This document shows, in pieces, positions 2,487-59,627 of a stretch of 64,000 nt of DNA. Positions within the stretch are counted from its first letter, which is position 1; each line of letters starts with the position of its first letter. The translations under genes were made by a program, and so were the position numbers. Below the pieces are notes generated by a model. It had not been told where the DNA came from and searched no databases. It saw nothing but the letters and a program-made list of their open reading frames with translations. This stretch comes from Marsupella aquatica (Eukaryota > Plantae > Marchantiophyta): assembly GCA_973895155.1 (NCBI GenBank), contig OZ316895.1, forward strand, positions 23,892,281-23,956,280. Direction: 5' to 3'.

Positions 2487-5400
2487 TCAAGCCAAATACT
2501 TCTCAAGCTTGTCCACCTCCTCTTCACTGCCAACAAAAAGTGGGACTCTTTGATGTACCTGTTCCCACACCGACGCCGTTTAGTTGAAAAGCTTTGGTCG
2601 GATCAGAGTATAATAATGCAGAAGAACGAAAAATAATATTTATGGTCACGATAGCTAATAGAATACAGGATTTACTTTGATACAAAAGAGTTCTACGAAG
2701 AGGATGCACTACAGGAGTGATGAAAGAGTTAAATAATTGAATAATTGAATAATGAATCGTTCATCACTCCTGTAGTGCATCAAATCGTTCATCACTCCTG
2801 TAGTGAACGGGGTGGAACGAAGGACGAAGGTTAATTCTACTCCGAATGTTATAGTCAACGTCTTACTCCACCCTCCTTAACTTGGGTCCACAATTGCTCT
2901 CCAATAACGGATGGTTCTACTACAAGCATTTACTTTTGCTCCCCGGTTACAGAGAGTGTCAAGGAGTATATCACTCCCGGTACAACAGCCCTGCGGAGTG
3001 TAACTATGAATTCACTCCAGAAAAAATGCACTCCCAAGCAACGTGGAAGACACAAGAAAAGTAAATGATCAGCCTACATAGGAAAGCAAATTTATCTACT
3101 GAGAATTAGTCAGGAAAAGATGTACCATGAGAGAGATTTACCTGGTCGGGCTGGATATCCAAAACTCTGTTTCTGCCATCCGACCCCTTTCCACCAGCCT
3201 GCTCTGCCAAGAAGCTCATGGGAGCACACTCATAGAGCAACCTCAGCTTTCCAGTAACACTCTTCTTGTCGGCAGGGTAGCCGTAAATTCCACCGTAGAG
3301 CATAGTTCTATGGAAATCACCCACGAGACTGCCAATGTAGCGAGCTGAGTAAGGCTTTCCATTTGCATCAGGGATTTTCAGGGCATCCACATACTTTTTC
3401 AACTTGTCATCCCAAAGCGCATAGTTCCCTTCATTAAAGGAGTAAATCTTTCCCTTCTTAGGAATCTTAATGTCCCTGTGTGTAAGCACGAACTCCCCAT
3501 ACAGAGGGTCAAGGGTGAACCCGAACACTCCATTGCCAACCGACAGGACCATGATGACCGAGCTGGAGTACATGCAATACCCAGCAGCCAGAAGGTTACT
3601 TCCGGGCTGGCAGACATTGATGATACAGTTCTCTTGAGTCTTGGCAAGCTGCAACACAAGATATTTGTTAAGCTTTCGTTTCCAGCAGTATCACAACTTT
3701 CGTTTCCAGCAGTATCAACCAGGCATTCCAACATTTCGTTCAATGCCTGATCTAGTCATTCCGCATTGCAGCGTGAATCCAAATGTCAAACGAGTCCCCA
3801 AGATAACATATATAAAATTCTTTTATCCAGAGGTAACCATTTTAATTTATTTTTACAAGACGATCTCTATTCGTAGGAGATCAGACCACTTCCGTGAAGT
3901 AAGACGACGATGAGAAAAGGAATGAAGTGAACGACTAGAAGAAGCCAAGCGGCACCCGTGCACACGACGGAAATGGATTTACACTCGAGCGTGCGGAGAC
4001 AACACTGATGTAAGTTGCCTCTTTCGGCTGAGGCAACATAATTCAGGGGGCAAAACGCCGACTCTATTTACGGTAAGCAAGGGAAAGAGTTGGGTTGAAT
4101 GTTAAATTACATTGTCTTCGTCATCGAGGTCTGCGAGGCACTCCTCAGTGGGCCTGTAGATCCCGAAAATTGAACCAGTGGAGACTGCTGCGTCGATGTT
4201 CGAAGAGCCATCCAAAGGATCGAACACAACGACGTAATTTCCTGAGTAACTCTCTTCCACTGCCACTGGGGTATCCTCCTCCTCGGAAGCGATGATGCCT
4301 GTCCTTCCGCTCGACCTCAGGCAGCTGGAGAACACCTGCAAGTTGGAATAGACCACATTGACCCGTCCCTTTAGACATATGCATGACCCCGTCCAACCTC
4401 GGCTTCTAATCGGAAACCCAATTTTGGGCCCGTGTTACTAGCCCATTTCCCAAGCACACTTTTATCCTCCACTCATCCAAACGAGAGAGAAGATTGCTCG
4501 AAGATTTCCGTCTCAAAAGAAACCGGAAGTTATGCCAATCGGAATCCTGGACAGCGGCGTCCCAATTCCTAATTTTTCTTCTTTCGACTGACTAACGATA
4601 GATTTGCAGCAGTGGATACAGTAGATCCAAACTACATCATTGTAAATTCCGAAGTTTTGGTCTCTACCAAAATACTAAAACAAAATACAAACGAAAATTT
4701 ATTTTCCAGTACTCTGATTTTGGTTACAAGTTGTGATCAATCTGTACCATGATTGAAAGAGGAAGAATGAATCTACGTAGACTCAGACAACTCATTATTA
4801 GTGGCTGGATGATGACGATCATCCAGCATCAGTTATCGATAGCAGAATGGCAATACTAAAAGTACAAGGGATCCACACAGGCCCTGGGACAAGAATTGTA
4901 CAGTGCATTCGAGAGGCAGAAGTCACACATCGTGGGTATGTGAATTTGAGAATGAATGAGTGAAAAATCAGTAGACAAACTATCTAGTCCTCGACGACCC
5001 ATGTGGTCAATGGGACCGACGCTTCGCAAAGATTTCTACGAGCAAAATCTCACGTAAGTTCTGAACCAAGAGCGTACCGACGAATTCACCACAAAATCTC
5101 TAGCTTGAGTCCAGAGAGCGAATGAACGAATGAAAGTCCACGGGAATTCAAATCGGCAATGGGACCAATAATGTAAAGTGACCCATCCAAGTCAAATTCA
5201 ACGTCGCAGCAGGTGGGCAGCATTAACAGGAGATCTAGACAGTCCGGAAGCGCATTTCATTTCATTCCCCAACTCCTACGAAATGCGGAATGGACTGGCT
5301 GATGGAAAAGAGCGAGAGAGAGAGAGGCACCTCGTTGGAGATGACATCGAGCTTCTTCTGGTCCTCGCCCTGCACGTTGACGGCGCCCTGCACACCGGTG

Positions 5401-5810
5401 AGATTTGAAATGCCAGCGCGTTGCACCAATGAGGCAATCTGCTTGCAAGCCACCGCAATACTAGACAGCACAATGGTCAATTCCCCATCAATCACGCCCT
5501 CCTGCTCCTCCCTCAGCAACCAGCCGGTGAAAGTCTCCAACTCGTACAAGCTCTTCTTCCTGGGCTCCTTGGCTGGCGGAGTCACGGCAATAGCTGCTCT
5601 CGCGGCCCCTCCTCCTCTGCCCCCCGCAGCAACACAGCTCGTGGCTCTGTTCACTCGCAGCCGCAACGATGGCGATGCTGCGTGGAAGGAGGACGAGAGC
5701 TCATTGCACAGGGCCCGAGCGGACGATTCTTTGCCGTGAGAGGTCTTAGATAGCCGTGATTCAGCAGCAATCGAAGCAATGGAGCTGGCAACTGCTGTAG
5801 TGGCAGCCAT
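2487..5810 (-). CDS. FBP: Fructose-1,6-bisphosphatase, chloroplastic (redox-regulated cpFBPase), 4 exons, ~427 aa
   Basis: Exons 5810-5331, 4335-4111, 3648-3142 and 2558-2487, all GT-AG and in frame. Ala/Ser-rich transit peptide. Motifs [63 protein letters not shown] and [10 protein letters not shown]. Regulatory loop with three cysteines ([27 protein letters not shown]). Confidence 0.97.
2703..2805. repeat. Intronic 22-bp perfect inverted repeat with CACTA...TAGTG ends plus a duplicated right arm
   Basis: gatgcactacaggagtgatgaa (2703-2724) pairs with ttcatcactcctgtagtgcatc (2760-2781). aatcgttcatcactcctgtagtg is repeated up to 2805. Lies in FBPase intron 3. Confidence 0.75.
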
Positions 5811-6569
5811 AGCTTCAATCCGTTCTAATTCTCCACACTGTAGTCGCTCAGCTCAATTCAGCTCAGCTCAGCTACAATGCAATAGAAGCGACAGGAAGAG
5901 ATTGAAGGGAACTCTGAATTCTGGCCAGGAAGCGAATTGCAGTGCACGGTGGTCAAAATTGATCAATGAACCAATCAATTCCGCTCCGAATCAGCGTCAG
6001 CAGCAGCAGAGAGTCTCCACTTCCTCTCTGGATAGCATCGCGATGAACGAACAGCATATCCACAGAAGGGGAACGAAACCGGCGGGGCTGATTCCGGGGA
6101 CATGGAAGGGGAACGAGAGGTTGGGAAGGGGAACGAGAGCTGTTGGGAAAACGCGAACGAGAGGCCCACAGTTGGATAACCAGAGCACCAAGAAGATGGC
6201 GCCACGTCGGAACATTTCAACGCCCCTTGAAGGATCGGACGGTCTCCAGTGCGCCCCCGGCATGTTCATGCGCACTTGTGGGGGCGGTCCTCTGAAACAA
6301 GTAACAGTAATTCGTTACCGAGTGTGTACGGTTTTTAGGGGCCTTTATTATGTTTGAGGGAATATAGATTATTTCATTTTGAGAATGAAAGGATTCTATT
6401 CTGGAACCCTGCAATCTGGAGTTCTTGACCGTTGATTGAATAGATGAACGACAGATGATGAGTACTGGGATTCGCATCTTTGCTGCCGCATTACAAAGTT
6501 ACGTTTTGTAGTATTGTCTTTTAGGGGACATGGGCAAAATTACGTATTACTGTTTTAAATTATCTAGTA

Positions 6570-7450: not shown

Positions 7451-10299
7451 TGCCTTTGAAATTCAATTTGCCAGCTGGTGCCCAAAGTAGAGAAGGGAAG
7501 CTCTTGTGAACATTTCTTTGAGGTTCAGAGTATACCAAAGTCACCTAGTCATCCCAAGCAGTGTGTATTTTAGTGGCAGAAATTTGCTAGATTCCACCTC
7601 CCCAAAAATCTTTCGCCACTTTTGGCTAAAATTCGCTACTTTTTGCTGTCTCATTAGCCAGTGTTCCACCTAATCCCAGGCCCCATTAGCCAGAATCTAT
7701 GGTCAGCCTTAAATCTAGGGAGATCTGATGGGCAGGAAGATAATTGAATAATGAATCTTTTGAGCATCTTTCCTTCACACACTTTACATTGCCACTCTGG
7801 CAAAAAAGTGAAATCCTTAAAAAATACACTGATCCCGAGAATACCGTAGTGCCATCACGGTTTGTGCAGGACCTCCACGTTTTCATTTTTGGAAAAATGC
7901 AAGGCCACCTGTTCTAGGTTTTTAATTTTAGAACAGTGATGGCGTACAACAAAAAGTCAGTGTTTACACCAGAATGCTTACTTAGATATTCTTAAAATTT
8001 ACATGACAAAATTCTTTCGACATTTCACAAAGACCCTAACATGTTTTGTTTAACATGTTCTGTTTGTTGTGCAATGAGGCCTCAAAGCAAATAATGTTTA
8101 ATTGGTTGTAAGCCAATAGGATCTGTTCTGCTAGATCCACCACTAATAACTTAGTACTATTTAGAAGAACAAAATCAAACAACACAAAACTTCTTCTTGG
8201 GGTTGAGGTATCTTTTGAATATGACCCTAACCCTAACCCTACTTGGACCATCTTGCTCCAAACATCATACAACGTATGACTATGAGCAATGAAATGTGAC
8301 CCTCCATCCTCATCTCCATTGTGCGTCACAGCAGCAAGTCACAACATACGTAGCATTTCAAGCTTGGTACATTGTATCTGGCATTTGCTTCATTCTCCCT
8401 CCTCCTGATATAGATGCATCTTTCTAATGCCTTTCTATTTCAACTTATTCAAAAAATATATAAAAGTTATATTATCATATCATACTGAGTACATGAGAGG
8501 AATCATTTGGTATAAAGTTATGAAAATGACTGAAACTTTACAAGAATTCAACTTCAAGAATGGTGGCTGAGGGGGCTGGGGAGAGACGGTGCAGCAGTCT
8601 CGAAGCATGAAACACTTGGCCACTACCAATGCAAAAGAAAATTAACTGAGTACAAAGAAACCTTTCTGGTAGAAAGTAACCCTCAAAAGAAACAATACCA
8701 AATTACCTAGTGACTAGGATCATGAGAATGGTGATATTTCGGAGGACCAGTTAGATATAGATGTACATTGTGCACCTTGACATCTCGGGGCTCAAGTTTC
8801 AAATTGGATGAAATATTCTGCGATGATGGATTCTTAACATGAAAGGTGACCAAGGATACATCTTGTGTGCTTCCTTCTGATCCATATCTGCCAGGTAATC
8901 AGCTTTTGCATAATATGGCACATGATGATCGACAAGGATATCCAATTGATCCTTAACTGGCTTGATAGTAAACATGAGTCGGGCTGCACAAGACCAATCG
9001 GGTGGAGACAATGACAAAGGTATAATTCACAAGTCTTTTGTTCTACCTTGACAATGCCGTACAACAAAAGCAGCAAAAATTGTGTAGTTAATTAAGCTAC
9101 AGGATTGCAAAGAAGTTCAGTTTTTGGAGCCAATTTTCAATGAATCACTGTGCATTCAAGCTTCATAAATGACTGACCATGCAAATTAACACTCTTCAAC
9201 TTCTAAAGACTAGAAAGAATTAGGGGTAATTGTCCATTATACATAACAATCCCAGGTTAGTGGTTTGATTGTAGGACACCAAATTGTGAGATGCACAGAA
9301 GCTGCCATGAAAGCTATTATGGAAGAAAACATGAAAGGGCTCAAAGATATAACTCAGGTGCACACATTACTACAACTTTGAACACAACTCACTAGATTTT
9401 AGTTATTGTAAGCCTCAAATTCAATACTCATGGGATGGTGAGACTAAGTTGATTGATGGCCAGCATTGATACCAACCTATAGAATTTACAGAAAAGAGTT
9501 TGCAAGTAGGAAAGGTACACCATTCTCCTTTTATCATTCTCCATGAGAAGATTTATGGAATATTCTTGAAAATCCTACACTATGTACAATCAAGAAAGAG
9601 AAATTGTCCAACAAGTGCAATTAAACATGGAGAATGAAGAAATAAACTTCAAGTAAAGAGATTAACCCTAATATGAAAAACCCTAAACCCTGAATTCTCA
9701 AAGGAAGCACTTATCTGGGGGAGCTTTTGGAGAGTGACTGTTTGAGGGTAAAATTCTGGTGTCAGCCATCTTTCAAATAATCTTCTCATCAGACAACTAG
9801 GTGTAAAAAGTTTGCTAGATCATGAATTCATACAATTCTGAAGCAGGAGAAGAATTGTGCCAACCTGCATGAAATGGATTTAATTTATTTGAAGATTTGA
9901 GAACTGGATAAGTTGCATTTATGTTACAACGTAATGAAACTGTTTCATAAGCATTCATGTTGTGTACAATGTTTAGAGGCTAGCTACCAAGTCCATGACT
10001 GAGAAAGAGAAGGTTGATACGTTGAAGGAGCTGGAGGACTTATTTTATGGCTTCAGCTCTCAGCAAATTTCTATCGCAATGCAAGCTTTAACATTGTGCT
10101 ACGAGGCAACTCATCATAATGTTGATGTTCCACCAAAGGTTTAGAACTATTCCAAAGTCTGTGTTTAATTTTAGTGGCTCTCTTGGTTTTGATATCATAC
10201 ATGTTTACGTGAAATGAAGTCAAAGGGTTTGGAACCATTGCAAATTTAGCCCACTTGACTACTGTGAATAGTGGTTAGATAACAACTAATCGGTAGACA

Positions 10300-10617
10300 C
10301 TAGTCAGGTTACCCCTTCCTTGAACATAAATAAACATGAAGACACGAAAAAAATTCTTGAAATGAAAGAATTCTATACTATTTCCCTTGCCCCCATCCAT
10401 ATTTTTTGTCCACCCTTATTTCATTGTTGTCTTTAGTTAGAGTCAATGTCACTTTTGTTCATCTTTGCTCCTGTCCCTATTTTTTGTCCACCCTCATGTG
10501 TGTTGTCCTTATTAACAATCATTGTCACTTTTGTCTTTATTAAGAGTTACAGTCTGGAGGCTTCACTCTAGACCATAGGCCTTTCAAGTAGTTTCCCTTT
10601 GCTAACTATTAGTAAGA
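10300..10617 (-). mobile_element. Non-autonomous Helitron family member
   Basis: Minus strand starts a|TCTTACTAATAG, carries core ggtctagagtgaagcctccagactgtaactct and ends atgttcaaggaaggggtaacctgaCTAG|t. Confidence 0.65.
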
Positions 10618-11234
10618 TCTCTAGGATGCAACATTGTTGTCCTTGCATCAAGTTTATTCCATGAAGAGGATAATTTCAAGAAATGTGGATGATGAATTGT
10701 GAGAGTACTGAGACCTCCACTTAAGAACATATGATGTGGAATAGTTTCTAGCCAATAATAGGATTTCCCCACAGTAATTATTCAGGTTTCCATATGTAAA
10801 GAATTCTATGGATGCAACACTTATCCATGAACTTGGTTTCCTGTAATATTCTAGAGATTTTGGAAATAGCATACTGTTTACATAACATATCAGATCAGAT
10901 AGTTTTGTGGGGCCAGTGTTATAAAGAAAATCGATTATAAGTAATGAAGGAATCTTAGCGGAGGGTTCACAAGAACTTTACTGGGAAAATTTCATTTGAT
11001 TCCCTTTAATTTCAAGCATTTGGGGGAATTGCATTCTTTCCCCTGCTTTGGGGACAGCCTTACTATAGACGAGGAGAGATTCCGAATCGATGTGCACCAA
11101 TCATGAAGATTTCAAAGCGATCAATAGTATTTTTTTGTGCAATGGACGTCTCGAACCCCTTCTTCCAAAATCTGTAGACAGGGAGTGAAATTTCCTTCTT
11201 TCAACAAACTGGTGAATCGAACTTGGGCCACACA

Positions 11235-14200
11235 ATGGTATCAATTTTCACTGTGAAGATGTAATTATAAGCAAAAGGTATTTGTGTCATTTGTCAGGTG
11301 ATTAGTCAACAAGCTTCGGGTGAGGACGTGGATCGGAGTGAAGTAACGCAAGGTGCAGACCCAAGTGAACAATCTTTAAATCAGAGTGTGAGGTCAGGTA
11401 CAGCAACTTTGAATCAAGATGTTGAGTCACCTTCATCAGAGAGCTCCAGCAAAATGTCAAGAGATGAGAACCACCATATCGAATACGTGGACAACGAGGC
11501 TGAAAACAAAACTTATGCAAAATTGCTCCCTAGGTGAGTCTGCCTGTAAATGCAGTAGCAAAAAGTCGACATTATTGCTATACAAACGTACTGATCAAAA
11601 GTTCCCAAGACTTGGGTTCGTGATTATACCGGAGCGACAGCTCAGATGAAAAGAACAATCCTTGTAAGGTTTGGAGGCATAATAGATATCATGGGAATGT
11701 TCTCATGCACTTTGATCGCGACTGACAGCTTGAATGGATTATTTTATGATTTTAGTTCATCAATGAGAAAAAGAAATCGAAATTGGTCTGAAAGTTGGAG
11801 GAAGGCTGTGGAGGGTGCTCTTCAAATTTCCAAACATCCCCGTCCCAAGATACGGTACATCATCTTTCAACTTTAGTTTGACTACTAGTTGATTTTACAC
11901 TTATATTTCAGAGCCCAACAGCCACAAATTCTGAAGATCAGATCATAGTTCAATCAAATCACGATTCCTAAGTTCAACTTCCAAAAATCATTAAGATCAG
12001 CTAGACAAACTCTATCGAATTGGTAGTTATTCCATGTGAGCCAAACCCATACTTTCAATGTTTGCGCTGCAACCAGGACTCCACATGAGACTTCGATCTC
12101 AAAGTGTACAGAGTATGATTTGGTTCCAAGTGGTGTACTTAAACACTAAGGTAGAGAAAGATATACCTGCTCGAGGATGATTTGCATACTAATCATGATG
12201 TTTGGCCTGTCTACACTCTTGACCCATAGCATCTGTTACAGCAGCTGAAAATAGGTGCAAAAGGTTTTACTTCTGCTAAGTTTCCAGAGAACTATATCTG
12301 ATTAACTAAGTTTCAAAACTGCAGAGACGCAGTTTTTTCAAAAATGGAAGCATTATCAATGCGAAAAGTGGTGCCAAAGTCAGAAGGTGCAAAAGAACGT
12401 TTGCGGAAAATTTTGAGGTCTAAGTTCGATAAGAGCTTTCCAAGTACAATTATTTCCATTCCTAGTTGCGTTGACTCAAGGTTTAGCGTTTTGGTCATTA
12501 CAACATTCGCTTCCAAAGAAAACTTACGGTCACTTTATCGAGTAAAATGTTGGGTGTTTTGACTGTCTCAACAGTACGTAGAGTAGATAGAGAGTGGAGT
12601 TACTTGACTTATAACTTACATTTCAAGCTTGTCCTTCCAGCACGCACTTTCTTCTAGGAGACTTGGATGATGCATTGAGGGAGGAGATAGTAGACGCTTT
12701 TCAGGATCTTCGTGTTGGGCCCGATACAGAAGTTATGAAACCTGGAGAATCAGCTGACTTCTTTTATGTGATTGTGAGCACCATTTGTAACCCGACATCT
12801 AAGGATTTCCTGGTCAGCATGTCAATGTAATCCCAGCCCACTCATAAGTTTCTTACAGCAAATGTTTTGAGTGAAGGCTGTCTTGGATAGTGCTTTCCAA
12901 TTATGGTGGGCGCCAATATTTCGGCAATCCTGTTTTCCGAGGGAAAAAGTCACAAACGGTTGGAATGTAAATTCAAGGGGTACCACAAAAAACATTTCGG
13001 CAATCCTGTTTTCCGAGCCTCATCTTTTCCCTTCGTGTACACTTTCTAAGAGCATAATACAATTTCAATTTTCCCGCCAACTTGATCTTTTGGTTCTTGC
13101 ATACAGGATGTTGGAGAAGTTGACGTTTTGATGAAGAAGGTGAGCTGAAGTAAATTATATGATCTCAAGCTCCATGTGTGTTGAATTCTATGTTATAGCT
13201 GAATAGGAACATCCCACCCAGCTAGCAACAAACCAGTTCGAAGCTTAATCGTACAGAACACAGAATTCGAAATGAGTTTCCATCGTGCTTGCTTGGTAGG
13301 GTAATGAACCCACCACTCTGGTACATTCGAAAGGCGCAGGGGAGAGCTTTGGAGAACTAGCGCTAATGTATGATACTGTTCGGAATGTAACAGTCAAGAC
13401 CAAAACTCACTGTCTGTTGTGGTCAGTTGACCGTCCAACATTCAAGTCCACTATCAGCCGCCATCTTAGTGGGTCCCAAATTGCACAGGTATTCCATCGA
13501 ACCAAGCGACATCCCTTCATGGCTTTGGTCAATAGAGGCTTTCTTCAAACAACACAGCGTTCTGTATTTATGAGGAATTGAAATTTCATGTACTGTCTTG
13601 TAAGTGAATTAAAACTTGAGGAGTCAAGCTAAATAAGAAACCCAGGATAGAAATGAAGCATGTACCAAAATGAAGAGAGAACTTATCTGTTGTCTTTGGC
13701 AATTCATGTTGTTTTTTGAACTTTGGATGTCCCAAATTTCGAGTACCTAAAGGAACGTTTCTAACAAATGCTGTTGTCGGTAATTACGTTGGTAGGTGCT
13801 AAGAGAAGTTCCTGCATTGAAGAAACTGCCAACTCGGGATATTGTCGCGTTGAGCCGCCATTGCAGCGTTCAACATTTTCGTCGTGGTCAGCAAATTTTG
13901 CAAGCCGGTACTCACGTAGACAAGGTGAGTTTGGATAGGACACGCAATACTTAACAATATAGCTGTATTTTAAGGCAACTACTGTAGATTGTTGTCTGCA
14001 GCAGCATCATATAGCTTGATCTGTGACTATGGATGGCCGAGATTGATCAGGTTTCTAAATGTAAGTACTCGTTGCTGGTATCAAATAAGGTAGACTGCAT
14101 TTACTCACGTGGAGCAGAATGGATGAGCCTATTTCTTACCATGCACAATGCAGGTGTATGTTATACAAGAAGGGCAAGTAAGAATGAGTTGGGGAGTACC

Positions 14201-17200
14201 TGTAGCAGGTAAACCATCAGGCGTTGGAGGAGACACACTGGCGATGATGGATCGATTAGAAGTTCTTGGTGAGGCTTTGCTCTTAAATGACGACACATTG
14301 AACCCTTGGAACTACGTTGCGTCCTCGGACCATGTAATTTTGGACCCTAGCCTTCAGGTTATTAAGCCATGAAAAGAAATTACGGTAGCTAAAAAGTTGA
14401 GTTGTTCTCTTAATTTAATCTTTTTAAGAGACCTTGCTATCCAAATATTTAGCTATCTATGATCCTAGTGCACGGCATGAATAGTTTTGATACGGAACAG
14501 TGTTTTAACTCGGGAGTAGATAAAGATCCAACTGGAAGCACAAATGCATTTAATAAGGTTTAGTGCTTTAAATGATCTCTAAAACCGACCTTATGCTTGA
14601 CAGGTCGAATTGATTATGATGAACAGAAGTCTATTTGATAGCGACATTTCGAAATCTATACGAAAAGGGTTGCAGATACAATTTATAATTCTTGCCCTTC
14701 AACGTGTGCCGTTGTTTCTAGAGCTGGACTACGAGCAACTTTCAAACCTTGCAGAACAATTCACAGAATCAACGCATAAGAGAGGTTCCATGTAACATCC
14801 TAGAATCTTTGCCCTCATTGAACATTATTGATCCAAGAACTTCCTACACTAACATAGATCTCTTCCAAGTCATTTTGAATCTAACCTTTTAAGTATGTTG
14901 CCTACAGTTTTTTGATAAGCTAATGATAAACTTGCAGCGGAAGAATCAACCTAAGGTCGTTCATATTAAAACTTTGTGACAGATTAAGTTCATTAATTGG
15001 CATTGAATGAGTCAAGCTAGTGACATGTAGAATGGAGGACTCTGTTTCAACTAACAGATGACGATTCAGATTGAGTGGCCTGTGATACAAACGATAATCC
15101 TTGGATCTGCCGTTGATCTGTGCAGGACAAATAATTGTGGGAATTGGTGATGCTTCTGCCTCCGATGCACGTTTATATGTCGTCCTCAAAGGCACTTTAG
15201 TAGTACAGAACTTCGTGACCAGTCCTGAAGTGATGCAAAATGATGCGAATCAGGTGACTAACAGTCCGGTGATTAATAGTTGGGGTAGTAGACTGGGCTC
15301 TTTGTTGAGGAGCCCGTCTGGAAACCACACAATTCCACCTCCTCTGACCCCATTGAAGAGCCCATCTGGAGTAAACACAATTCCACCTCCTCCAACCTCG
15401 TTGAAGAGCCCATCTGGAGTAAACACAATTCCACCTCCTCCTACCTCGTTGAAGAGCTCACAAGGAGGAAATACAATTCCACCTCCTCTGACGAGTGGCT
15501 CGAAATCTTCTCCCACAAGTTCCGGAACTTCCAGCACAAGCCTCTGCAGCCCGAGTACTAGCTCAGGTCCCCTGAAAGTGTCCCAACTTGAAATTAACAA
15601 TTCGGCAAGGGATCCTACGAGTCGCTCCCCTTCGCTCACTTCTGGGTAGGTGGAATTGTCTCTTTGAAGGAAACCATGCACTTAAGGCGCACCTGTTACA
15701 TGTACGCTACTGTAAACCATTATCAGAGAAAGCTAAGGATGCTCTTCATTCTCAAGAAAGTGTTCATGAAAAGAACGTACCAATTAAGAATTGTTCGCAG
15801 GCAAAATATGTCTTCATGAGTAGCTCTCACTGAAAAACATTTCAAACAAAATGTTTTTTGGAATGAAATACTTCATAACTCAGGTGTCTTCTTCCTGCCT
15901 GATATATTGCTGTGAGAATCGTAATGATTCATTACTACTAATCCCACGTCCTATATCTGTCGAAAGCTTTATAATCAGGTGTTGGTGTTTCTGTGAGATC
16001 CAGTCAAAGCTGGACTATTACAACTTATTCGGTCTTTGGAGAGGAGTGTTTACAAGACGACAGATCCTCAAGCCCAGCATGCCAGTCTACCACTGTGCTT
16101 GACAGTGCAGCGATTTGTTTATCTGTGTCACTGTCAGAGATGGCCTGTGTGCTTGGACCTATACAAGAGTTTCTTGCACGAGTTGCAAATCTCAACGTTC
16201 TTAGGTGCAATTCTCTCCTTTCTCTTCACATACATGCACCAACGGCAAGCTAGTGATCTGATTACACATCTGTCAATTAAACTAATTATTAAAATGAGGC
16301 TCTCAAGTAATGTTGAAAAACTATCACAGGAAAACTTATTACAGGCTCGAAAAAACCCTTGAGCTGTTATATCCGGTAGATGATATACCCGGAAATGAGG
16401 ATTTCGCCATCATTTTCTCGACTCAGGGATTTGTAAAGCTCATTGTATGCACACTCATAGTACCAGTTCCTAAATAAAACAGAGCACCCCATTGCTGAAA
16501 AGACCCAACTTGTCGTCACGTGAGAAATATGACAATGACAATTCTTTGGCCAGAAAGGTTCCATGCTTGGAGTATCTTACAAGCCCAGAGTTGGATATGA
16601 TGTCGCGGTCAATGGGTCTTCGGAAGGTGAAGCCCGGCGAGGTGATCTATCGCCTTGGAGATCCAGGTGACCGACTATATGTCGTCCACAAGGGGACAGT
16701 GGTGGAATCCACGAACTCAGCCAAAGATGGCAAAGTGGAAGAGCAAATCCTAGTATCCGGATCCTTCTTTGGAGAATGTGCTCTTCTTAAAGCAGAGCCA
16801 AGATGGCAGACAATAATTGGTGGCAACGCTAGTTCCCCATCAGGTTAGCATAATGTAGTATATATATCACTTGTGTAGCCATTTTGTGAAACCTCTAGAG
16901 AGCCTCACCATGTAACCGACATATAGACTGGGCTGCAGCTTAATGAATTCTGTTTCAAACTGTCACTCAATCGATTAGTCTAATTTATCTGAGGTAGATA
17001 GTTCCAGATATTCCAGCCTGTATTACTAAAAAGGTTTGGAGTTCTACACTTATATATAATAGTTGTCTTTCGAATTTACTTCCAATTGTTTCAATTGGTA
17101 CATTTGCTGTACTCAAGTCCGGACTCGTATCACCACACTGCTAATGATTTGTCCACCGGGTAAGATGCAGCCAGAATAGAACTGTACTATTTGGATCGAG

Positions 17201-20069
17201 GAGTTCTGGAAGCTCACCTTGGTCCCCTACAAGAGTTGTATGAGACTCGCAAAGCAAATGCTGAAAAGAATGGCATCATGAAGAAAATATCATTTGAAGA
17301 GCTGCAAGTGATCGGTCTCCTTGGCAGTGGTCAGTTTGATTTTCAGCTTGGTTAGCTTCTAGCAATACTGTAATACACATATAAAGTGACTGTAGTGTTA
17401 ATAGCCAAATCTCACGATAACCTATGGTACGATAATTGGAATCGGTGGAAGTCACTAAAATAAATAATTTCAGGTTAACGCGACCTAGGATCTGGAGAAT
17501 TCTAAACTTAATATTAGCGGATTGCAATTTGACATTTGTTTCCATTCAAATCTTTTGCAGGATTGTTCGGTAAAGTGAAACTTGTGTATTGCCAACGTAT
17601 GGATGAGTTCTATGCTCTCAAGTGCGTCAAGAAAGCGCAGGTAGGGATAAAGCATTGCCTAGTTTTGTGGGACGTTTCTTCATTCTAATGAAAGGTTGGA
17701 CAATATCTTCTCCACCGAATGTAATCAGTTCATACTAAAATTTGTGATGCGACCCTGAAGTTTGTATATTCTTAGCGTTCATGTGCTCAATTTTGAGCCT
17801 GTCGCCATGAAGCATTAAAATATTTTACAGCTTCTGAATAAGGCTCGACGATCATTTATGGTTGAGAATATCGGAGTTGAACTGTACGTGCAGGTCGTCA
17901 AAATGCACGAAGAAGAACACTTGCGCAACGAAAAGATCAATATGTCCGAGTTGGATCATCCTTTCATAACAAAACTTGTTCGAACCTTCAAAGACGAGAA
18001 ACATGTAAGATGCACGGTACTCGTAATATGTTGAGGGAATATTGACTTTCGCACGCGTTCAATTGCACTGCCAGTTACCTGCGCATGACTCCGAATGCCC
18101 AATTTTTCCAGATATATCTTCTTCAAGAGTTGACAACTGGGAAGGAATTGTTTCAATTCATGGAGAAGGTTGGGCGGCTCCAAGAATGGGAAGCTTCGTT
18201 TTATGCTGGTGCGGTGCTCCTTGCGTAAGGATTCTCCACTATATGTTCTTATCAAGCTTGTAGCAACCTACTTCTACTCCTACATCATCCTTATAGGCAA
18301 TTTAAGCTTTTAGAATATCTGCATATTTGTTTCAAAGTATATTGCAACTGAGATCGACAGCGCACTCTTAGTACAACTCTCGTCATTGTCGAATTTCATT
18401 TCATAAAATTAGATGATGCGACTAGAAATCCAAAGCAATTCCTGATAGATGGGTGACAATATGTGAGGTCCAAATCGAGGTCCAAATCAGTAAAACACTG
18501 CAGGAGGCGATTATTTTCCGATGATGCAATTCACTCTAAACAGGATGATCTTCTAGATATACAGTTAGTGCAAACTAGGGCTCATTGGACACGTTTGGCC
18601 CCTGATACAGAAGGATTAGAACAATTGTCCACCAATGCAGGCTCGCTAGACTTAAACGCCTCGCATGCTTTCAAAACGAAACAGAAAACCCTAAGGGTAT
18701 ACCAGACATGTGCAGATTGGAGTATATGCATGGCAAAGGAATTGCGTATCGGGATTTGAAGCCTGAAAACACTCTCATTGGAGAGAATGGATATCCCAAA
18801 CTTATTGACATGGGATTCGCGAAAAGGATTTACAATCGAAAAACGTTTTCCATGTGTGGAACACCAGACTACATGGCCCCCGAGATCATTAAACGGCAAG
18901 GACATGGAAAGGCTGTAGACTTCTGGGCTCTTGGTTGTTTGATCTTCGAGATGATTACAAACACCAGCGCCTTCAACAGAGGGAGCGATCCGCCTCAGGT
19001 ACTAGTGCTCTAGAATCTATAGATATGTCTGTACTGTAAAATAGCAATCATGCTGTAATGCAGCAACTAAATGCATTGGTCTATTTACAGTAGCTCCTTA
19101 TCGATGTTTGTTGGGATCCAATCGAAAGAATCGGTAGCTGTCTCGTTTCGATCATTAAATTTGAAAATAAAAAACGATGAAAAACTCATGTGACAGGACC
19201 TGCCCATTAGAAAAATCCTAGCAACCTCTGAATGTATATGGTTCAGAAGTACGTAATAGATGATGGCAGCAAGCAAACTTGGCTGTCCCAGAAAAATTAG
19301 CCCTCAAGCTCACTTCTACAAGAAACTAACCGAAAAATCAATTGCATGCACAGCTGAGAATCTGATTCAGAGGTGCATCGATAGATAATGCTCTAGAAAA
19401 GCCGCAGAGCGTCAATACAGAGACAGGCTTTTAATTTGCTGCCTTCACATATCCCACATTTCCCCACATTCTCCGGGACGACATCGATCACTAATTTGTT
19501 AAAGAAACTTTCTTGCAGGTTGTCTTTCAAAACATCACGGAAGGGCGCTTCCGTTGTCCGGGATATGTCTCGGTCACTACTGTGGACATTATCACGCAAT
19601 TGCTCGATCCAAACCCAGAAACTCGACTTGGATCTCGCCCAGGCGGGATCGTGGAGCTCAAGCAGCATCCTTTCTTCACCCGGGAGATAGACTTCCAACT
19701 TCTTCTACGCCAGAAAGAGGAGGCACCCGTGAGTATCACATTTGACATAATTTTACTGCAAGACACAATTTCAGTCGTTTACTAAATATATATATAGGTG
19801 CGAAACTAGCGCAGAACCTTATATGGCAGCAAATGTTTTGGTGAAGCCTTCTTTGTTAAGGAGTCTTAATTCCTCCAAGTATTGTCTGGTTTACGGTCTG
19901 GATACTCTCAAATACATACTAAGATATTACTTACCACTGCTCGCAGATGATCCCTAACAAGGTCAAGGACTACAAGGCTCTTTGCACGATTGACAAGCAC
20001 CCTGAAGATCCATTCGAAAATATGAGCAATGTATCACAGCACAATCCTCAGTGGGACGACATCTTTTGA
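11235..20069 (+). CDS. cGMP-dependent protein kinase (PKG)-like kinase: four CNB domains + AGC Ser/Thr kinase, ~1088 aa
   Basis: Predicted exons: 11235-11237 (ATG, uncertain), 11298-11533, 12325-12417, 12641-12773, 13107-13139, 13300-13488, 13796-13924, 14154-14333, 14604-14784, 15126-15645, 16004-16204, 16554-16843, 17171-17329, 17561-17640, 17894-18004, 18112-18224, 18716-18998, 19519-19728, 19947-20069. Phases are consistent (3267 nt). CNB cassettes FGELALMYDTVRNVTV, LGEALLL, FGEECL and FGECALLKAEPRWQT. Kinase motifs LGSGLFGKV, YALK, YRDLKPEN, DMGFAK, CGTPDYMAPE, AVDFWALG, RLG and HPFF. C-terminal WDDIF*. Confidence 0.92.
15305..15496 (+). repeat. Coding tandem repeat, 4 x 48 nt (LKSPSGVNTIPPPPTS), inside the PKG-like gene
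   Basis: Units LRSPSGNHTIPPPLTP, LKSPSGVNTIPPPPTS (x2) and LKSSQGGNTIPPPLTS, in frame within exon 15126-15645. Confidence 0.9.
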
Positions 20070-22244
20070 TTTGCTTCACAATCTTTTGAGGCCTCGATTA
20101 AATTCTTGGACTAATATGTTTGGGTGGCACGTTCTGTCGCTTTGCAAATGGATCATTCTTTTCAATATCATCATCCAGGGTGAACAGAGAATAATTATGA
20201 GCTGGTATTAGTCTCGAGCTGTCGTTTAGTTCATTCATTGAAGACGAGAACACTATCAAAGTCTCACATTTTGATTTTGTGGAGTGCTCTCGACAAGAAA
20301 CTCAGCACAAATGTGTACAGGTTAATTGGCCAATAGTAACTTAACTCTAAGTTCTAATGTAAAATGGATTATTTTCCATTCTCTCCCCTCGCCACCACCT
20401 CATAATTACAGTGGTGTCCCGCAATGTCTACGTAATTAGCAAACAATAACGAAAACTGAGTGCTCCTTGTCAAGCTCCAAACCAATCGAGCTCCAAAGCC
20501 CCCGCGTCACATGAGTACAAAACAAAAATTAGGCTTCTCTGTGCATGGAAGGTTCCAACCCTTACATTGCAGAAGATCCTCTAGTCTTGGCGCTAGTGAG
20601 TTTGGACCTGTGGGTAGATCACTTGAAATTATCTAATTGACGGGGAGAACGTTTCAAACAGTAATCACTGTCCTCGTCTCCATTCTCCTGTTCCCAATCT
20701 CTTGTTCCCATGTCCAAACACGTTTACTTCGGTTCATCCCTCGGGACTCCGAGAAATCCGGCAGCCTGTGGAGATCCACCAAGAAATTATGGACAATGCG
20801 CCACGGGAGTGAATTCATCGTGCGGATCTATGTGATGACAGAGAGGTGATAACTTGCAGAAGTTCCCCCAGGCAATGAGCTGTCAAAGCATAGGTTGTTG
20901 GAAAATTGCTTCGGTGTTAACGAAGGCGTTCCTGCGACACCTGGAGATCGCAGAATGAAAAAGAACTCTTCTTGGTTTGTAGTCCAAAAAGCAAGTCAAG
21001 TTTCGATTTCCGTAAGTGTTTAAAATGTCAGTGGGTTCGTGTTTTCTAATTGGCCCATTTATGCCAAATCGTCACTCAAGACTTGGGCGAGCTCTTAGAA
21101 GAAAGGGAAGATGGGAAATCTTGAGACAAAATTCCTCGTACATTGGTTGCTTACAAGTTATTCGAGACCATGCTTGCCAGATGCAATATTCCTGCTTAAA
21201 GTATCAGAAGATTCAATGATACAGAGTAGATGTGCTAGAGGCACTTCAAGCAGACCATAAGCTCTTCACCAACCAACCACAATCAGCCCCGCACTAAAAG
21301 AACACTGGTGTGAGTAATTAGTGGGGTCAGGGGGTATGTTGAAAATAAATCACAGCATCGTTACTCTAGATTTGTAAACAATTATTGTTGCATGAGAATG
21401 GGTTGACAATGGTTGGTCGGATGTTGAAAAACAGCAAAACCATTCCGCCGAAAGTTGTATGCGATGACGCAATCCCCACTCTTGACAAGACTTGGAAACG
21501 GATGAGGCAATGCGTAACTGTCGACAAGACTTGGAAAGCAAGATACGTTTGCTTCATGATTGTAATGCACTTTCGCTTTTATTGCAGACGTGCAATGTTC
21601 AAACCCATCTCGACTCTTTTTCTGAAGGCAGATTCCGAATGATGCCGTGTCGACTCCTTGTAGACTCATTCACAAAGACTGACGTAGTGCCCAGCCTCCT
21701 TTCAGTATCCACCACCATGGTTTTCAATTTCAGATCAAGAACACAAACGACTGACTGTTCACTCCCTTTCGGAGGAGGGCTTGTAGCCTTTAGACTCTTA
21801 GCAAAGACCATGGAAAAATATACTCCTGTTCAAAACATTCAGCTAATAGAGACCCGAGGGCGTGGGCGTGTGTCACTAGACTTTCGATTCAAGACAATCT
21901 GCACTTAGGCCGCAACAATTCGGTGTCCTTTGGCAAAAGACAAAACAAAAATCATGAGTAAACACACATCGTTGAGGGCTGATCGATGCATGAACATCCA
22001 GTCTTCGAGAGGATTTTATTAAGTGGAAGTGAGTACGGCGAGCTGCACAAAGCTCGAGAATTCAATGAGTTTTGGACATCCAGTCGGAGCCAGTGATGAT
22101 TTCACATACAGCAACCCGGGACAGCAACATACAGTTGCCTCCATGACTTATTGGCAATGATAATGTAAACAGTTGGATCCGACCCACAGTCATTGAAAAG
22201 GAAGGATCTATGCGTAACTTTCCGATCCCAAGCTACTGGATCGG

Positions 22245-23255: not shown

Positions 23256-25452
<2,197 letters not shown>

Positions 25453-52900: not shown

Positions 52901-55900
52901 TTACAAACAATTGAGACAAGTAACCTATCAAGACAATAGCCAGAAAGTGTTATCTAGTTTGTTTCACTTGCCTTTGTCTCGATCTTTTATGTTAGTATAT
53001 TAGAAAACTTAGAGTAAGTAGATCAGTACCCCTACTTTTCATATAGTTATTGGACATAATAGAGATGAGTACAAAAATTGTTTGTGTGAGCTGTGGGGAA
53101 AGTGGCAGATTGTGCATGGAATGGGCGCACAGTGACACCTTTAGGTTGATATCATGGTCAGAAAAAAATGTCACCATTATTCAATGTCCAAGGAGGCTTC
53201 TTGCTAATATGACATTGATAAACAGACAATGAGAAAGAAAGACAAGGGATCTAGCATATATGATAGTGTCTAGATGTATGTATGTTATTTTATTCCTAAA
53301 CCAAAAAACAATTGAAGCAAATACTGAATGAGAACACATTATAATTTCCATGACAAACCTTGACAAAATATTAGAGATATTGGAGATTGGCATGTTGATT
53401 ATATTTTCAGGCGAGATGGCCTTGCGATTCATGGCTGCAGGTTCACTTGCAGGCTTTGTTGATGAAAGTACGTATGTGAGAAAATTTCCTTGATGACAAG
53501 AAAAGTGTTTGCAGTATTGTTGTGGTTGTGTTTTTAGACAAAGTTATCTAGATGAAAAAAATATATTGGGGTTCACTTAACTTCTAGAAATAGGTCACTT
53601 GCATATAACACTCTCTTAGGTAACCCAATCATGCAGATCTTTTAAAAACATCTAGAGTAATACTGACCAAATAATTACTAGAGACCAAAAAAGTGAATAC
53701 AATCAATAATAAGTTATTGATTTTAAAAACCAGGCAAGAAAACATTTTTGAATGTAAACCTGAGCCACCAAGTTGAAGCTTTGATCAGTTGGGTCACAAA
53801 CCTTTGTGAGAAAAAACGGAAGTGCCCATACTATATCCCCCCCAACCGTGTATTATTTAAAGAACTCAAGGAGAACTAGTTTATTTACCAGGGGAGGGAC
53901 AAGAATCCCATCCAGAATAAGGAAAATCTGTCCGCATGTGATCATGAGAAAATGAAACTGCACGGTGCACCACAATGCTATTTCTATGTAAAGTACAATG
54001 TCTGACTTAAATAAATCCCCAAATTGGTGTCATATGAAGTTTTTCCTATCTAGAAATTTATACATGATATTCTACATTTGTGTGTTATGGTTGTTAATCC
54101 CATTGTTAATTCAGTCTGTGCATTGTGTTTATAGGGATGAATATTGTTGATACTGTTGTTATAGTTATCTCCTTTGGTGCCACTGGTTTTGGACCCAGCA
54201 AAAATTATCCAAATATAACTCCAATTCGAATGTTGCGTTGGTTTTATAAGAAGAACAGCCACAATGAAGACCAAGGGGAAGACATATCCATATCGGTATG
54301 CACTGAACTCCGTTTGTCCCATATGTTCTATTTCCAAACAACATAATTGCGCAATTGAAGTAAAAATGCACAAGATTCATGGGTGATTTTTTTAACCAAA
54401 AACTATCTTTGCATAAAGTCTCCAAAATGACAATATGTAGAAGTAGATGGAAGCTTTAGTCCATTGTCAGTGCATGATACTAAAGAGATGTTTATGGAGA
54501 AAAAGTGACTAGCTAGGATCTAGATCCATAATCTGCAGGACACATGTCTCACTCATTAGTGGGGGCATCATTCATTTAATAATGTCAATGGTGCATAAAA
54601 ATAAGACCATTGATACGAGGTGTCACTCGTTGAAATATAGTATGTATTCAAAGACAGAACAATAGTGATCTCGACCATTTTCTACTCTCCATCAATTTGA
54701 ATTAACAACCTTCCAAATGGATTATAATAATGGAGGATTATGCTGCCTACAGTCCAACCATTTCACTCTAATCCATGGTTTAACTATTTTTAGATATATT
54801 TGAGCTACCCAGAGGAAGACTGAAGTACTCATTATTTAGTTAGCTGTAAGTTACCAAGGTGATTTGCATGTGAACATCTTGTTAGACACTACAGTAGCTA
54901 GAATGGCTGTCATAAACAAAGAAAGAGAACAATTTCCTCAAGCCAGGCTACAAAGACAAATGTCACACCTCTATAACTATCACATAAGTGCAAATGAATA
55001 AAGACAATAGTCTCTATAATTGTGTTGTACTGTATGTTTAAAGAGAAAAACGAAATGATAAATACTTAATTAAATCAGCAAGCCAACTTAAACAACTAAT
55101 CTGACTTGCTATCAAAATAGCATTGATGTTCATTTTGTTTGATGTAGGTGGCAATCATACGAAGTTTTGGATCGTTGGCAAGCGTGTTTTTTTTCTTCAC
55201 ACTGGTCATTCTTGTATATTCCATAGTTGGCATGGAACTATGGGGCGGCCAATTCAGCAAATTTGATGATGGCTATCCACGTGCCAACCATGATACTATT
55301 TTCCAAGCTATGCTATTATGGTTTTCAGTGACCACAGCTGAAAGTTGGCCTAATCATATGTGGAACACAATGCGTCCTGGGATGCCATACCAGTTACACT
55401 TCCTAAATTGTCTTCAACTCTTGTGGACCAAGTCTCAGTGGATTCTTCACATAATTTTATGGACTTTAGCATCTGACATAATGTTGGTGTCAATAGTGTT
55501 GTTTCACTTTAAGATGGATATGGTGACCCCAATTGTGACCTTTCTTTAATCATGTTGCACCTCTCATGAATGGCATATATTGCAGTAAATAACTCAAAAA
55601 ATGCATGATGGTTATTGAGGGACAATTGTGTCCATATTATAAGACAAGAGTGCAGGTTGCAAGCATTAATTAGCAGTGACATGGATCATATGATGTGGCA
55701 GGTGGATGGGACCTATCATGTTTATTAGTTACTATATGACATCTACAATAGTTATTCTGAACCTCATCATGGCTGTGATTTTGGAGCAAACTGAGCTGAC
55801 TGACAACCAAAAAAAGTACATACAAAAGGTTTGATACCTCAGAGACAAGAATTATGGACAAAGATAAATTAATATATTTTGTTAAAGTTTGGTGTAACCT

Positions 55901-58900: not shown

Positions 58901-59550
58901 TAGCTCGGTGACAGGTCATTTTGATTGTGTGGGCTACTTCTATAATAATGTCGGGATAATTGCCCCAAGGACATGGAGAAACCCTCCTTTTCATTTTGAC
59001 AATTTTGGTGAAGCAATGTTGTCTTTGTTTGTTCTATCTACATTTGACAACTGGCTCGATCTATTTGCATACACTTCTATGGACATAGCTCATCAGCATG
59101 AATTACAGCCAACGCGAAATGGTAGCCCTGAAAATATCATTTACTTTGTGAGCTTTGTTTGTGTGGGAGGCTTCTTCATTTTACGCATGTTTATTGGTAT
59201 CTTTATAGACCAGTTTGGTATTATCTCGGGATCTAAGTTGCTCACAGAGAGGCAAAAGCTATGGCGAGATACAAACCGTATTGTACAATCTATGAGACCA
59301 ATTCGTCTTCCAAATCAACCCACGGGAATCATCCGAGGATTTTGCTATAGACTGGTTCACTCTAGGAGGTTTGAGCTACTTGTCATATTTGTGGTTCTTG
59401 TCAACTATGGTTACATAGCTTATCAACACTATGGCAGTGAAAGTATACTAGTACATTTTAAGCACGTTATGGACTTCCAGAATGTTGAGACTATGTTTGT
59501 TAGCCTGTACTTGGCGGAAGCCCTTGTCAAGTTTCTAGGTACTGAGGTGC

Positions 59551-59627
<77 letters not shown>

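Follow-up and report, generated by a model that had tools for sequence, protein, structure and literature searches.

A single-chain kinase with four cyclic-nucleotide-binding-like modules in the liverwort Marsupella aquatica

Gene structure at the locus

The stretch of DNA analysed here (the window) comprises 64,000 nucleotides of the liverwort Marsupella aquatica (assembly GCA_973895155.1, contig OZ316895.1, positions 23,892,281 to 23,956,280 of the forward strand). It is eukaryotic, intron-rich DNA and carries, on the + strand at 8974-20069, a gene resembling those of the cGMP-dependent protein kinases (PKGs). The 22 exons yield a coding sequence of 3654 nt and a protein of 1217 aa. The translated gene model consists of an N-terminal region, four tandem modules resembling cyclic-nucleotide-binding (CNB) domains, here called CNB-A to CNB-D, and an AGC kinase of the PKA/PKG type. 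We consider it likely that the product is an intact single-chain kinase, with four CNB-like modules and a complete PKA/PKG-type domain, and predict that it is activated by cyclic nucleotides. All features of the gene described below lie on the + strand.

The gene model was obtained by tblastn of two related proteins against the window, combined with a search for in-frame GT..AG junctions and separate searches for mini-exons and the first exon. The guide was the closest annotated protein, from the leafy liverwort Calypogeia fissa (P0001, 1247 aa); the second query was its Marchantia polymorpha counterpart (P0002). Exons 1-4 lie at 8974-9019, 9275-9357, 9977-10138 and 11298-11533, exons 5-9 at 11756-11854, 12325-12417, 12641-12773, 13107-13139 and 13300-13488, and exons 10-14 at 13796-13924, 14154-14333, 14604-14784, 15126-15645 and 16004-16204. 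They are followed by exons 15-19 at 16554-16843, 17171-17329, 17561-17640, 17894-18004 and 18112-18224, and by exons 20-22 at 18716-18998, 19519-19728 and 19947-20069. All introns are GT-AG, the 33-nt mini-exon 13107-13139 sits within CNB-A, and the sole stop codon is the terminal one (20067-20069). An earlier note on this DNA had placed the gene at 11235-20069. Its end coordinate coincides with the stop codon; the true start is at 8974, and the three 5′ exons (8974-9019, 9275-9357 and 9977-10138) had been missed.

The closing strands and helices of CNB-D, the linker and the beginning of the glycine loop of the kinase (…GLLGSG) all come from exon 16 (17171-17329). The two parts of the protein therefore share an exon, which answers, as far as DNA alone allows, the concern that CNB and kinase sequences belong to separate transcripts. 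The model was built on homology to predicted proteins, and an artefact in which two adjacent genes (one for a CNB protein and one for a kinase) or a decaying pseudogene are read as a single gene would be conceivable on that ground. We judge this very improbable: besides the shared exon, all 22 exons keep the reading frame, have canonical splice sites and contain no internal stop. The same fusion also appears in independent annotations of liverworts, of mosses and of a lycophyte, and it recurs in transcriptome-derived protist relatives (MMETSP and EukProt rows). The functional domains are also far better conserved than the linkers. Overall identity is 83% to the Calypogeia protein and 61% to that of Marchantia. 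By region, identity to Calypogeia is 69% in the N-terminus, 93% in CNB-A/B, 73% in CNB-C with its insert, 85% in CNB-D and 93% in the kinase; CNB-A/B is 73% identical to Marchantia. These values show that the sequence is from a relative of Calypogeia and is distinct from the annotated Calypogeia record. The pattern of 93% in the kinase and CNB-A/B against 69% in the N-terminus fits selection.

Two introns contain elements of their own. A short high-copy repeat in intron 3 (~10300-10600), at which the summed contig depth rises ~25- to 110-fold in all four DNA sequencing runs examined, is accompanied by many contig joints and loose ends and probably represents a small transposable element. In the intron separating exons 7 and 8, a pair of similar open reading frame (ORF) fragments (…NISAILFSE… and …FGNPVFR…) at 12870-13050 suggests a small duplicated element. 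Two of the runs (X3 and X4) come from a second organism, B, and contain ~70% of the sampled words of window 11200-20100; over 8900-20100, several hundred substitutions and small indels separate the contigs of organism B from the window. The sequence of organism B is that of a close relative or a second genome copy.

CNB modules and kinase domain

We iteratively built a family-specific CNB hidden Markov model (HMM) on 63 PKG-like proteins. With it, four modules are recognised in the window protein, at aa 237-352, 358-481, 491-577 (only the first half of a module) and 759-880. The second half of CNB-C aligns to the same model at ~aa 696-758 (hmmalign). Four modules are also found in seven further land-plant rows (P0001, P0002, P0004-P0007 and P0012), and four complete contiguous modules in the green alga Cymbomonas tetramitiformis (P0121) and in ciliate PKGs. 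Pfam detects Pkinase and cNMP_binding in 7/7 relatives, with three CNB stretches in six of them and two in Physcomitrium. Among single ORF pieces of the window only 3/17 give Pfam matches (two cNMP_binding, one Pkinase) because the exons split the domains. The earlier note had anticipated four CNB domains and four PF00027 matches. Four modules are indeed present by the custom HMM and by predicted fold, two of them canonical and two degenerate; Pfam, which also recovers the Pkinase domain, finds three cNMP_binding stretches rather than four in the Calypogeia protein.

CNB-A (12407..13470) is matched by the custom HMM with E 4e-28 and by Pfam cNMP_binding with 1.9e-07 on 13300-13581. Its phosphate-binding cassette (PBC), FGELALMYDTVRNVTVKT at 13348-13401, contains the Glu and Arg, with Asn after the Arg; the cassette reads FGELALMYDTVRN, and Glu and Arg-Asn recur in 8/8 land-plant rows tabulated. 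CNB-D (16194..17235; custom HMM 5e-27, Pfam cNMP_binding 8.8e-13 on 16474-16848) likewise has both residues in its PBC, FGECALLKAEPRWQTIIG at 16768-16821. Here the Arg is followed by Trp (codon TGG, 16804-16806; cassette FGECALLKAEPRW), a residue found at this position in this window only. Glu and Pro/Ala-Arg are present in 12/12 land-plant rows for CNB-D, and the residue that follows is Ser in eight (among them Calypogeia, two Marchantia species, two Riccia species, Diphasiastrum and P0013), Val in two (Sphagnum), Leu in one (Physcomitrium) and Trp in the window alone. The Arg residues of CNB-A and CNB-D align onto those of CNB-A and CNB-D of Plasmodium falciparum PKG (PfPKG) in HMMER alignments.

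The two central modules differ. CNB-B (13486..14663) gives E 2e-24 with the custom HMM and only 0.14 with Pfam, on exon 14154-14333. Its PBC, LGEALLLNDDTLNPWNYVAS at 14265-14324, keeps the Glu, has neither Arg nor Lys and carries a one-residue insertion; the cassette LGEALLLNDDTLNPWNY has no basic residue. Model positions 2-58 of the custom HMM match the first half of CNB-C (14691..15292; E 2e-13), made up of the N-terminal helices and initial strands, and the second half of the module (16005..16193) corresponds to strands and the PBC helix in the predicted structure described below. The CNB-C PBC, FGEECLQDDRSSSPACQSTTVLD at 16035-16103, keeps the Glu, has Cys in the canonical Arg column and contains a four-residue insertion (cassette FGEECLQDDRSSSPACQSTT). 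CNB-B and CNB-C of the orthologs have Gly-Glu/Asp and likewise no Arg in the canonical column.

CNB-C is interrupted by a Pro/Ser-rich insert of ~135 aa (~aa 560-695; 15239..16004), which includes a 48-nt tandem repeat present 3.9 times at 15304-15492 (Tandem Repeats Finder; 16-aa unit LKSPSGVNTIPPPPTS). The insert varies in length between orthologs and is absent in Cymbomonas. At the other end of the protein, a conserved block (aa 20-95; 9286..10132) shared by liverwort, moss and Calypogeia orthologs is predicted to be helical, with low to medium confidence. The N-terminal region matches no Pfam family, and an Atlas feature search of it returned only unnamed clusters (maximum score 0.83). A basic segment, SSSMRKRNRNWSESWRKAVEGALQ (aa 176-200; 11532..11828, across an intron), lies ~40-50 aa upstream of CNB-A. 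The segment (SSSMRKRNRNWSESWRKAVEG) is conserved in liverworts and Physcomitrium and aligns with RKKRRLAVS of Cymbomonas; it may be an autoinhibitory, pseudosubstrate-like segment. In PfPKG, an N-terminal autoinhibitory segment occupies the substrate site, as described in the accessible part of PMC6628679.

The AGC kinase domain with its C-terminal tail (aa 904-1217; 17305..20066) gives a Pfam Pkinase match of 7.8e-32 on exon 18606-19013, and of 5.8e-63 in the Calypogeia protein. The intact AGC kinase ending in WDDIF that had been read from the letters alone is borne out, all of its motifs being located on the + strand: the G-loop GSGLFG (17323-17571, with an intron after GSG), the lysine of YALKC (17611-17625), YRDLKPEN (18747-18770), GTPDYMAPE (18858-18884) and the terminal WDDIF (20052-20066), directly followed by the stop codon. 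Further motifs are HLRNE, with the αC Glu, DMGFA and the activation-loop Ser in TFSMCGTPDYMAPE. The motif after subdomain VII is thus DMG rather than DFG, with the DFG Asp kept. A 47-sequence alignment has 25 invariant columns, including the G-loop Gly, VAIK Lys, αC Glu, RD..K.EN and TP..PE. By its motifs, the kinase is catalytically complete.

An AlphaFold2 model of the Marchantia ortholog, made from the 47-sequence alignment, has a mean predicted local distance difference test (pLDDT) score of 74.8 and shows four β-barrel-plus-helix CNB folds and the kinase. Disorder is predicted for the insert and for most of the N-terminus. The third CNB is interrupted at residues 552-636, the equivalent of the insert (pLDDT <50), and the strands and helices of its first half are modelled with pLDDT ~80-97. 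In a Foldseek search of the PDB with this model, the top eight matches were all full-length Plasmodium PKGs (E 4.3e-59 to 2.4e-56, 916-938 aligned columns), followed by human PKG Iβ (2.1e-40) and PKA catalytic subunits. Sequence comparison with the PDB gives the same order (PfPKG 1.7e-100, human PKG Iβ 5.6e-87, PKA-C ~1e-65).

Relatives, distribution and phylogeny

A query with the kinase exon identified the Calypogeia protein as best match (99% over that exon), then M. polymorpha MPTK2_1g01440 (P0002), followed by proteins from Riccia, Sphagnum, Physcomitrium and Diphasiastrum and a partial Selaginella protein. The window gene is an ortholog of Marchantia Mp1g01440 and of moss and lycophyte genes. 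These orthologs resemble the window protein in architecture and PBC pattern, whereas only the window copy has Trp after the PBC-D Arg, and its insert has its own 16-aa tandem repeat. Common to the land-plant orthogroup are DMG, a CNB-B and CNB-C without the PBC Arg, the CNB-C insert and the terminal WDD[IV]F.

A word-indexed search with residues 250-1247 of the Calypogeia protein returned 161 proteins at E<=1e-20 among 7988 scored candidates. The 11 with E<=1e-200 are four liverwort, five moss and one lycophyte protein and P0013, which falls among the land-plant clade. The best match outside land plants is Cymbomonas P0121 (5.6e-133, 41% local identity), followed by ciliates, dinoflagellates and diatoms; angiosperms contribute AGCVIII kinases only, at ~1e-30. 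An exhaustive HMMER search of 1.84 billion representatives with the Marchantia protein gave 8616 proteins at E<=1e-30. Only six exceed 50% identity, none of them assigned outside the land-plant group, and the rest reach at most ~41%; the more distant matches include Palpitomonas, Rhodelphis and Phytophthora PKGs. Neither search yielded a fern, hornwort, seed-plant (including cycad and Ginkgo) or charophyte ortholog, a weak negative because the collections may lack these proteomes or conceal them within 50%-identity clusters. Liverworts, mosses and lycophytes were the only groups to yield orthologs, and by this sampling the family is one kept by liverworts, mosses and clubmosses. Subject to the same weak negative, the observed distribution does not appear to fit a simple ‘sperm flagella’ pattern.

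Two protist architectures turned up in passing. Giant protist proteins with 12-14 CNB stretches (P0353, 3779 aa, from Gefionella okellyi; P0378 and P0389, ~2650 aa) are among the top matches of the exhaustive search, and in the Thalassiosira diatom protein P0008 (1086 aa) three CNB modules precede a pair of tandem kinase domains.

A kinase tree (49 rows, 325 columns, IQ-TREE quick mode; angiosperm PP2C19, animal PKG and PKA-C not among the rows) places the nine land-plant rows in one clade with a Shimodaira–Hasegawa-like approximate likelihood ratio test (SH-aLRT) value of 100 and a branching order resembling that of the species tree. Eight proteins in which a type 2C protein phosphatase (PP2C) is fused to CNBs and a kinase form a separate clade, also with SH-aLRT 100. 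The tree does not resolve deeper relations among the families.

These fusions raise the question of whether the window gene is a member of the PP2C-CNB-kinase family (‘plant PKG’, PP2C19-type) that has lost its phosphatase domain. Both families combine CNBs with a downstream AGC-type kinase, both occur in the green lineage, and their deep branching is among the relations left unresolved by the tree. The differences are considerable. PF00481 is absent from 7/7 relatives scanned (including P0001, P0002, P0004, P0006, P0009 and P0010) and from the ORF pieces of the window, in agreement with the earlier note, which had seen no PP2C domain. Members of the fusion family (Arabidopsis PP2C19; P0167, P0234, P0303 and P0346) have an N-terminal PP2C and two CNBs, against four modules here, and the aligned ones are without the G-loop glycines and the HRD Asp, all of which the window protein keeps. 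Forcing the land-plant clade together with two green-algal PP2C members, a group chosen after the tree was seen, costs 35.2 log-likelihood units and is rejected (p-AU 0.0157 in the approximately unbiased (AU) test), for trees without angiosperm PP2C19. Cymbomonas holds both kinds of protein, the four-CNB P0121 and the PP2C-type P0303. According to the accessible part of PMC13017905, Arabidopsis PP2C19 comprises PP2C, CNB and an AGC kinase-like domain predicted to be inactive, and the Marchantia PP2C19 ortholog is PP2C only. An origin of the window gene within this family is therefore hardly credible, and a single-chain CNBx4-kinase without PP2C is what the gene model, the custom HMM and Pfam together uphold.

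Joining the land-plant clade with the four-CNB protein of Cymbomonas gives a likelihood 0.64 above that of the free tree (p-AU 0.535). This constraint is not rejected, so descent within the green lineage is compatible with the data, not proven, and on the kinase alignment the Cymbomonas protein may be sister to the land-plant clade. The suggestion in the earlier note of a retained protist- or algal-type kinase gains from this result and from the four-CNB Plasmodium PKGs being the best matches among solved structures; the descent it implies is unproven. The Cymbomonas protein shares with the window the four CNB modules, the kinase and a basic RRLAVS-type segment upstream of CNB-A. It differs in that overall identity is 34%, its CNBs are contiguous without an insert, CNB-B has the Arg and the kinase has DYG.

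In a tree of 63 single CNB modules (120 columns), all A positions come together (SH-aLRT 93), the CNB-A of the window falling with the first CNBs of its relatives, and land-plant C is placed with ciliate C (90). When land-plant C and land-plant D are joined instead, the likelihood rises by 4.17 (p-AU 0.60). The grouping of C with ciliate C thus failed against the alternative in the AU test, and no module-by-module homology with alveolate PKGs is claimed.

Among characterized kinases, the PKGs of Plasmodium falciparum and P. vivax (PDB 5dyk, 5ezr, 4rz7 and 5dyl) are likewise single chains with four CNBs followed by an AGC kinase, although identity over the fold alignment is only ~24-25%. They share with the window protein a degenerate third CNB and an N-terminal segment before CNB-A (accessible part of PMC6628679). 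In contrast to them, CNB-B here also lacks the Arg, CNB-C has the insert, DMG replaces DFG, and the N-terminal region is ~236 aa long, compared with an autoinhibitory segment of ~30 aa in PfPKG. Ciliate four-CNB PKGs (Stentor, Blepharisma) also have four CNBs and a kinase, but with Arg-Thr in the PBCs of A, B and D. Metazoan PKG I/II (human PKG Iβ, PDB 7lv3 and 7t4t) place the CNBs N-terminal to the AGC kinase in one chain, as here. Metazoan PKGs have two CNBs, Arg-Thr in their PBCs and an N-terminal leucine-zipper dimerisation domain; the window protein has four modules and no zipper domain recognisable by Pfam, and its N-terminal helices are modelled with low confidence. In PKA holoenzymes (Marchantia MpPKAR1/2 and MpPKAC; mammalian PKA) the kinase is about as similar to that of the window as the kinase of PfPKG is, but the regulatory and catalytic parts are separate polypeptides, whereas here they are fused and combined with four modules.

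The PKG-like gene lies between a fructose-1,6-bisphosphatase gene upstream (~3106-5852, - strand; Pfam FBPase and FBPase_C on two ORF pieces) and a class III peroxidase gene downstream (~23256-24683, - strand; PF00141 on two ORF pieces). Further along, at ~55148-61860 on the + strand and possibly from ~50900 towards the window end, is a gene for a voltage-gated cation channel of several repeats, in which at least three Ion_trans stretches are recognised. Its exon 58506-59630 is closest to domain III of animal T-type/L-type Ca channels (Cav3.3, 7wli, 1.7e-65, vs ~1e-23 for NALCN). Four-domain Cav channels are not known from seed plants; with ~35 kb between it and the PKG-like gene, the channel would add another ‘animal-like’ signalling gene to the window.

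Predicted regulation and its meaning for the family

Our reading of the protein leads to a model in which the regulatory region would hold the kinase inactive and binding of a cyclic nucleotide (cAMP or cGMP) at CNB-A and CNB-D would release it. CNB-B and CNB-C would serve as structural or relay modules, like the non-binding third CNB of Plasmodium PKG, and the basic segment upstream of CNB-A would be the autoinhibitory segment. The released kinase would be expected to phosphorylate basophilic Ser/Thr sites. According to the accessible part of PMC6628679, CNB-A, B and D of PfPKG bind cGMP, activation is proposed to start at CNB-D, and the third CNB, without the conserved Glu and Arg, is non-binding.

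Several observations weigh against this reading or limit it. Arg is kept together with Glu in CNB-A and CNB-D only, so two of the four CNBs are without it. Pfam reports no family in the 290-aa CNB-C region of the Calypogeia protein, even at E<=10, and the identity of CNB-C as a CNB therefore rests on the custom HMM and on the predicted fold of the ortholog. The residue after the PBC Arg is Asn in CNB-A and Trp in CNB-D of the window, not Thr/Ser. This position is Thr/Ser in PKGs and Ala in PKA, and Thr/Ser favours cGMP whereas Ala favours cAMP; it is Arg-Ala in A and D of Cymbomonas and Arg-Thr in Stentor. The label ‘cGMP-dependent’, which UniRef applies to several orthologs (‘cGMP-dependent protein kinase’), is thus unjustified for this copy from sequence, and neither the nucleotide specificity nor the affinity of its CNB-D can be called in this way. 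Nor does the catalytic domain decide the matter: compared alone with the PDB it is similar to PKG and PKA alike (PfPKG 3.7e-69, 236.5 bits; PKA-Cα 1.1e-66, 228.4 bits), so the ‘PKG’ label rests on the architecture. DMG is found in every land-plant ortholog aligned, with DYG in Cymbomonas and DFG elsewhere; DMG in place of DFG is probably tolerated. In the structure model, pLDDT is <50 at the proposed autoinhibitory segment, which by itself neither supports nor refutes autoinhibition. The placement of domains relative to each other is weak (predicted template modelling score, pTM, 0.47; TM-score to PfPKG 0.27/0.39), so the match to Plasmodium PKG is one of collinear domains and no shared global arrangement is shown. 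Finally, none of the four sequencing runs, which come from two studies, is catalogued as RNA, and their contigs continue across the introns of the gene; the runs are therefore DNA and uninformative on transcripts.

Some of these points could equally mean that the CNB array no longer senses cyclic nucleotides and has become an autoinhibitory element, a scaffold or a sensor of another ligand, with the kinase regulated by phosphorylation or by partners. The loss of the phosphate-binding Arg from CNB-B and CNB-C extends to all orthologs, the residue after the CNB-D Arg is variable (Trp, Ser, Val, Leu), Arg-Asn in CNB-A is unusual, and single CNB exons score weakly in Pfam. There is also a precedent in the kinetoplastid PKA regulatory subunits, which keep the CNB fold without a response to cAMP. 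Against this, Gly-Glu and Arg are found at the canonical PBC columns of CNB-A and CNB-D in every land-plant row covering them, the alignment of both modules with CNB-A and CNB-D of PfPKG, which bind cGMP, holds residue by residue, and CNB-A/B is conserved as strongly as the kinase. We therefore think a loss of nucleotide sensing unlikely, though deserving of serious attention, and favour a kinase activated by cyclic nucleotides through CNB-A and CNB-D.

The family has so far received little attention, as the earlier note had supposed. In the literature found, Mp1g01440 occurs only as a line of a supplementary table: SI Table S1 of PMC11032487 (PNAS 2024), in the part accessible, gives it as ‘cGMP-dependent protein kinase like’ among 14 CNB proteins. 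The work described there concerns CAPE and the PKA regulatory subunits in Marchantia sperm, not Mp1g01440, and reports that the PKA regulatory subunits contribute to sperm motility. In the papers searched, Mp1g01440 appeared in no main text and no study of the family was found, although the supplements of a sperm-gene screen (bioRxiv 10.1101/2021.07.25.453666) might list it. Four points were not found in print: that two modules of four look competent, that the third contains a variable disordered insert, that DMG is common to the land-plant copies, and that the family is distinct from the PP2C type.

A wider reading can be offered tentatively. The family could be the sole catalytically competent, self-contained cyclic-nucleotide kinase of land plants, a two-site (A and D) sensor from flagellate green algae. 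It might act in bryophyte and lycophyte sperm beside CAPE and PKA, reading cGMP or a second cAMP signal, for example in chemotaxis, and might have been lost as sperm motility was rewired or lost. We regard this scenario as possible, though rather doubtful.

For decades it has been disputed whether any plant kinase reads cyclic nucleotides, and plants were said to lack a typical PKA in a 2012 review (accessible part of PMC3499706). The window gene is one more ortholog of an already catalogued, uncharacterised family, and its value is that of a lead rather than a discovery. The angiosperm ‘PKG’ is a PP2C fusion with a kinase-like domain predicted to be inactive (PMC13017905); in the family described here no catalytic motif is missing, and two of the nucleotide pockets are canonical. 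The gene is single-copy in Marchantia, where CAPE/PKA cAMP signalling controls sperm motility (accessible part of PMC11032487), and a direct test of the predicted activation is therefore possible in that plant.

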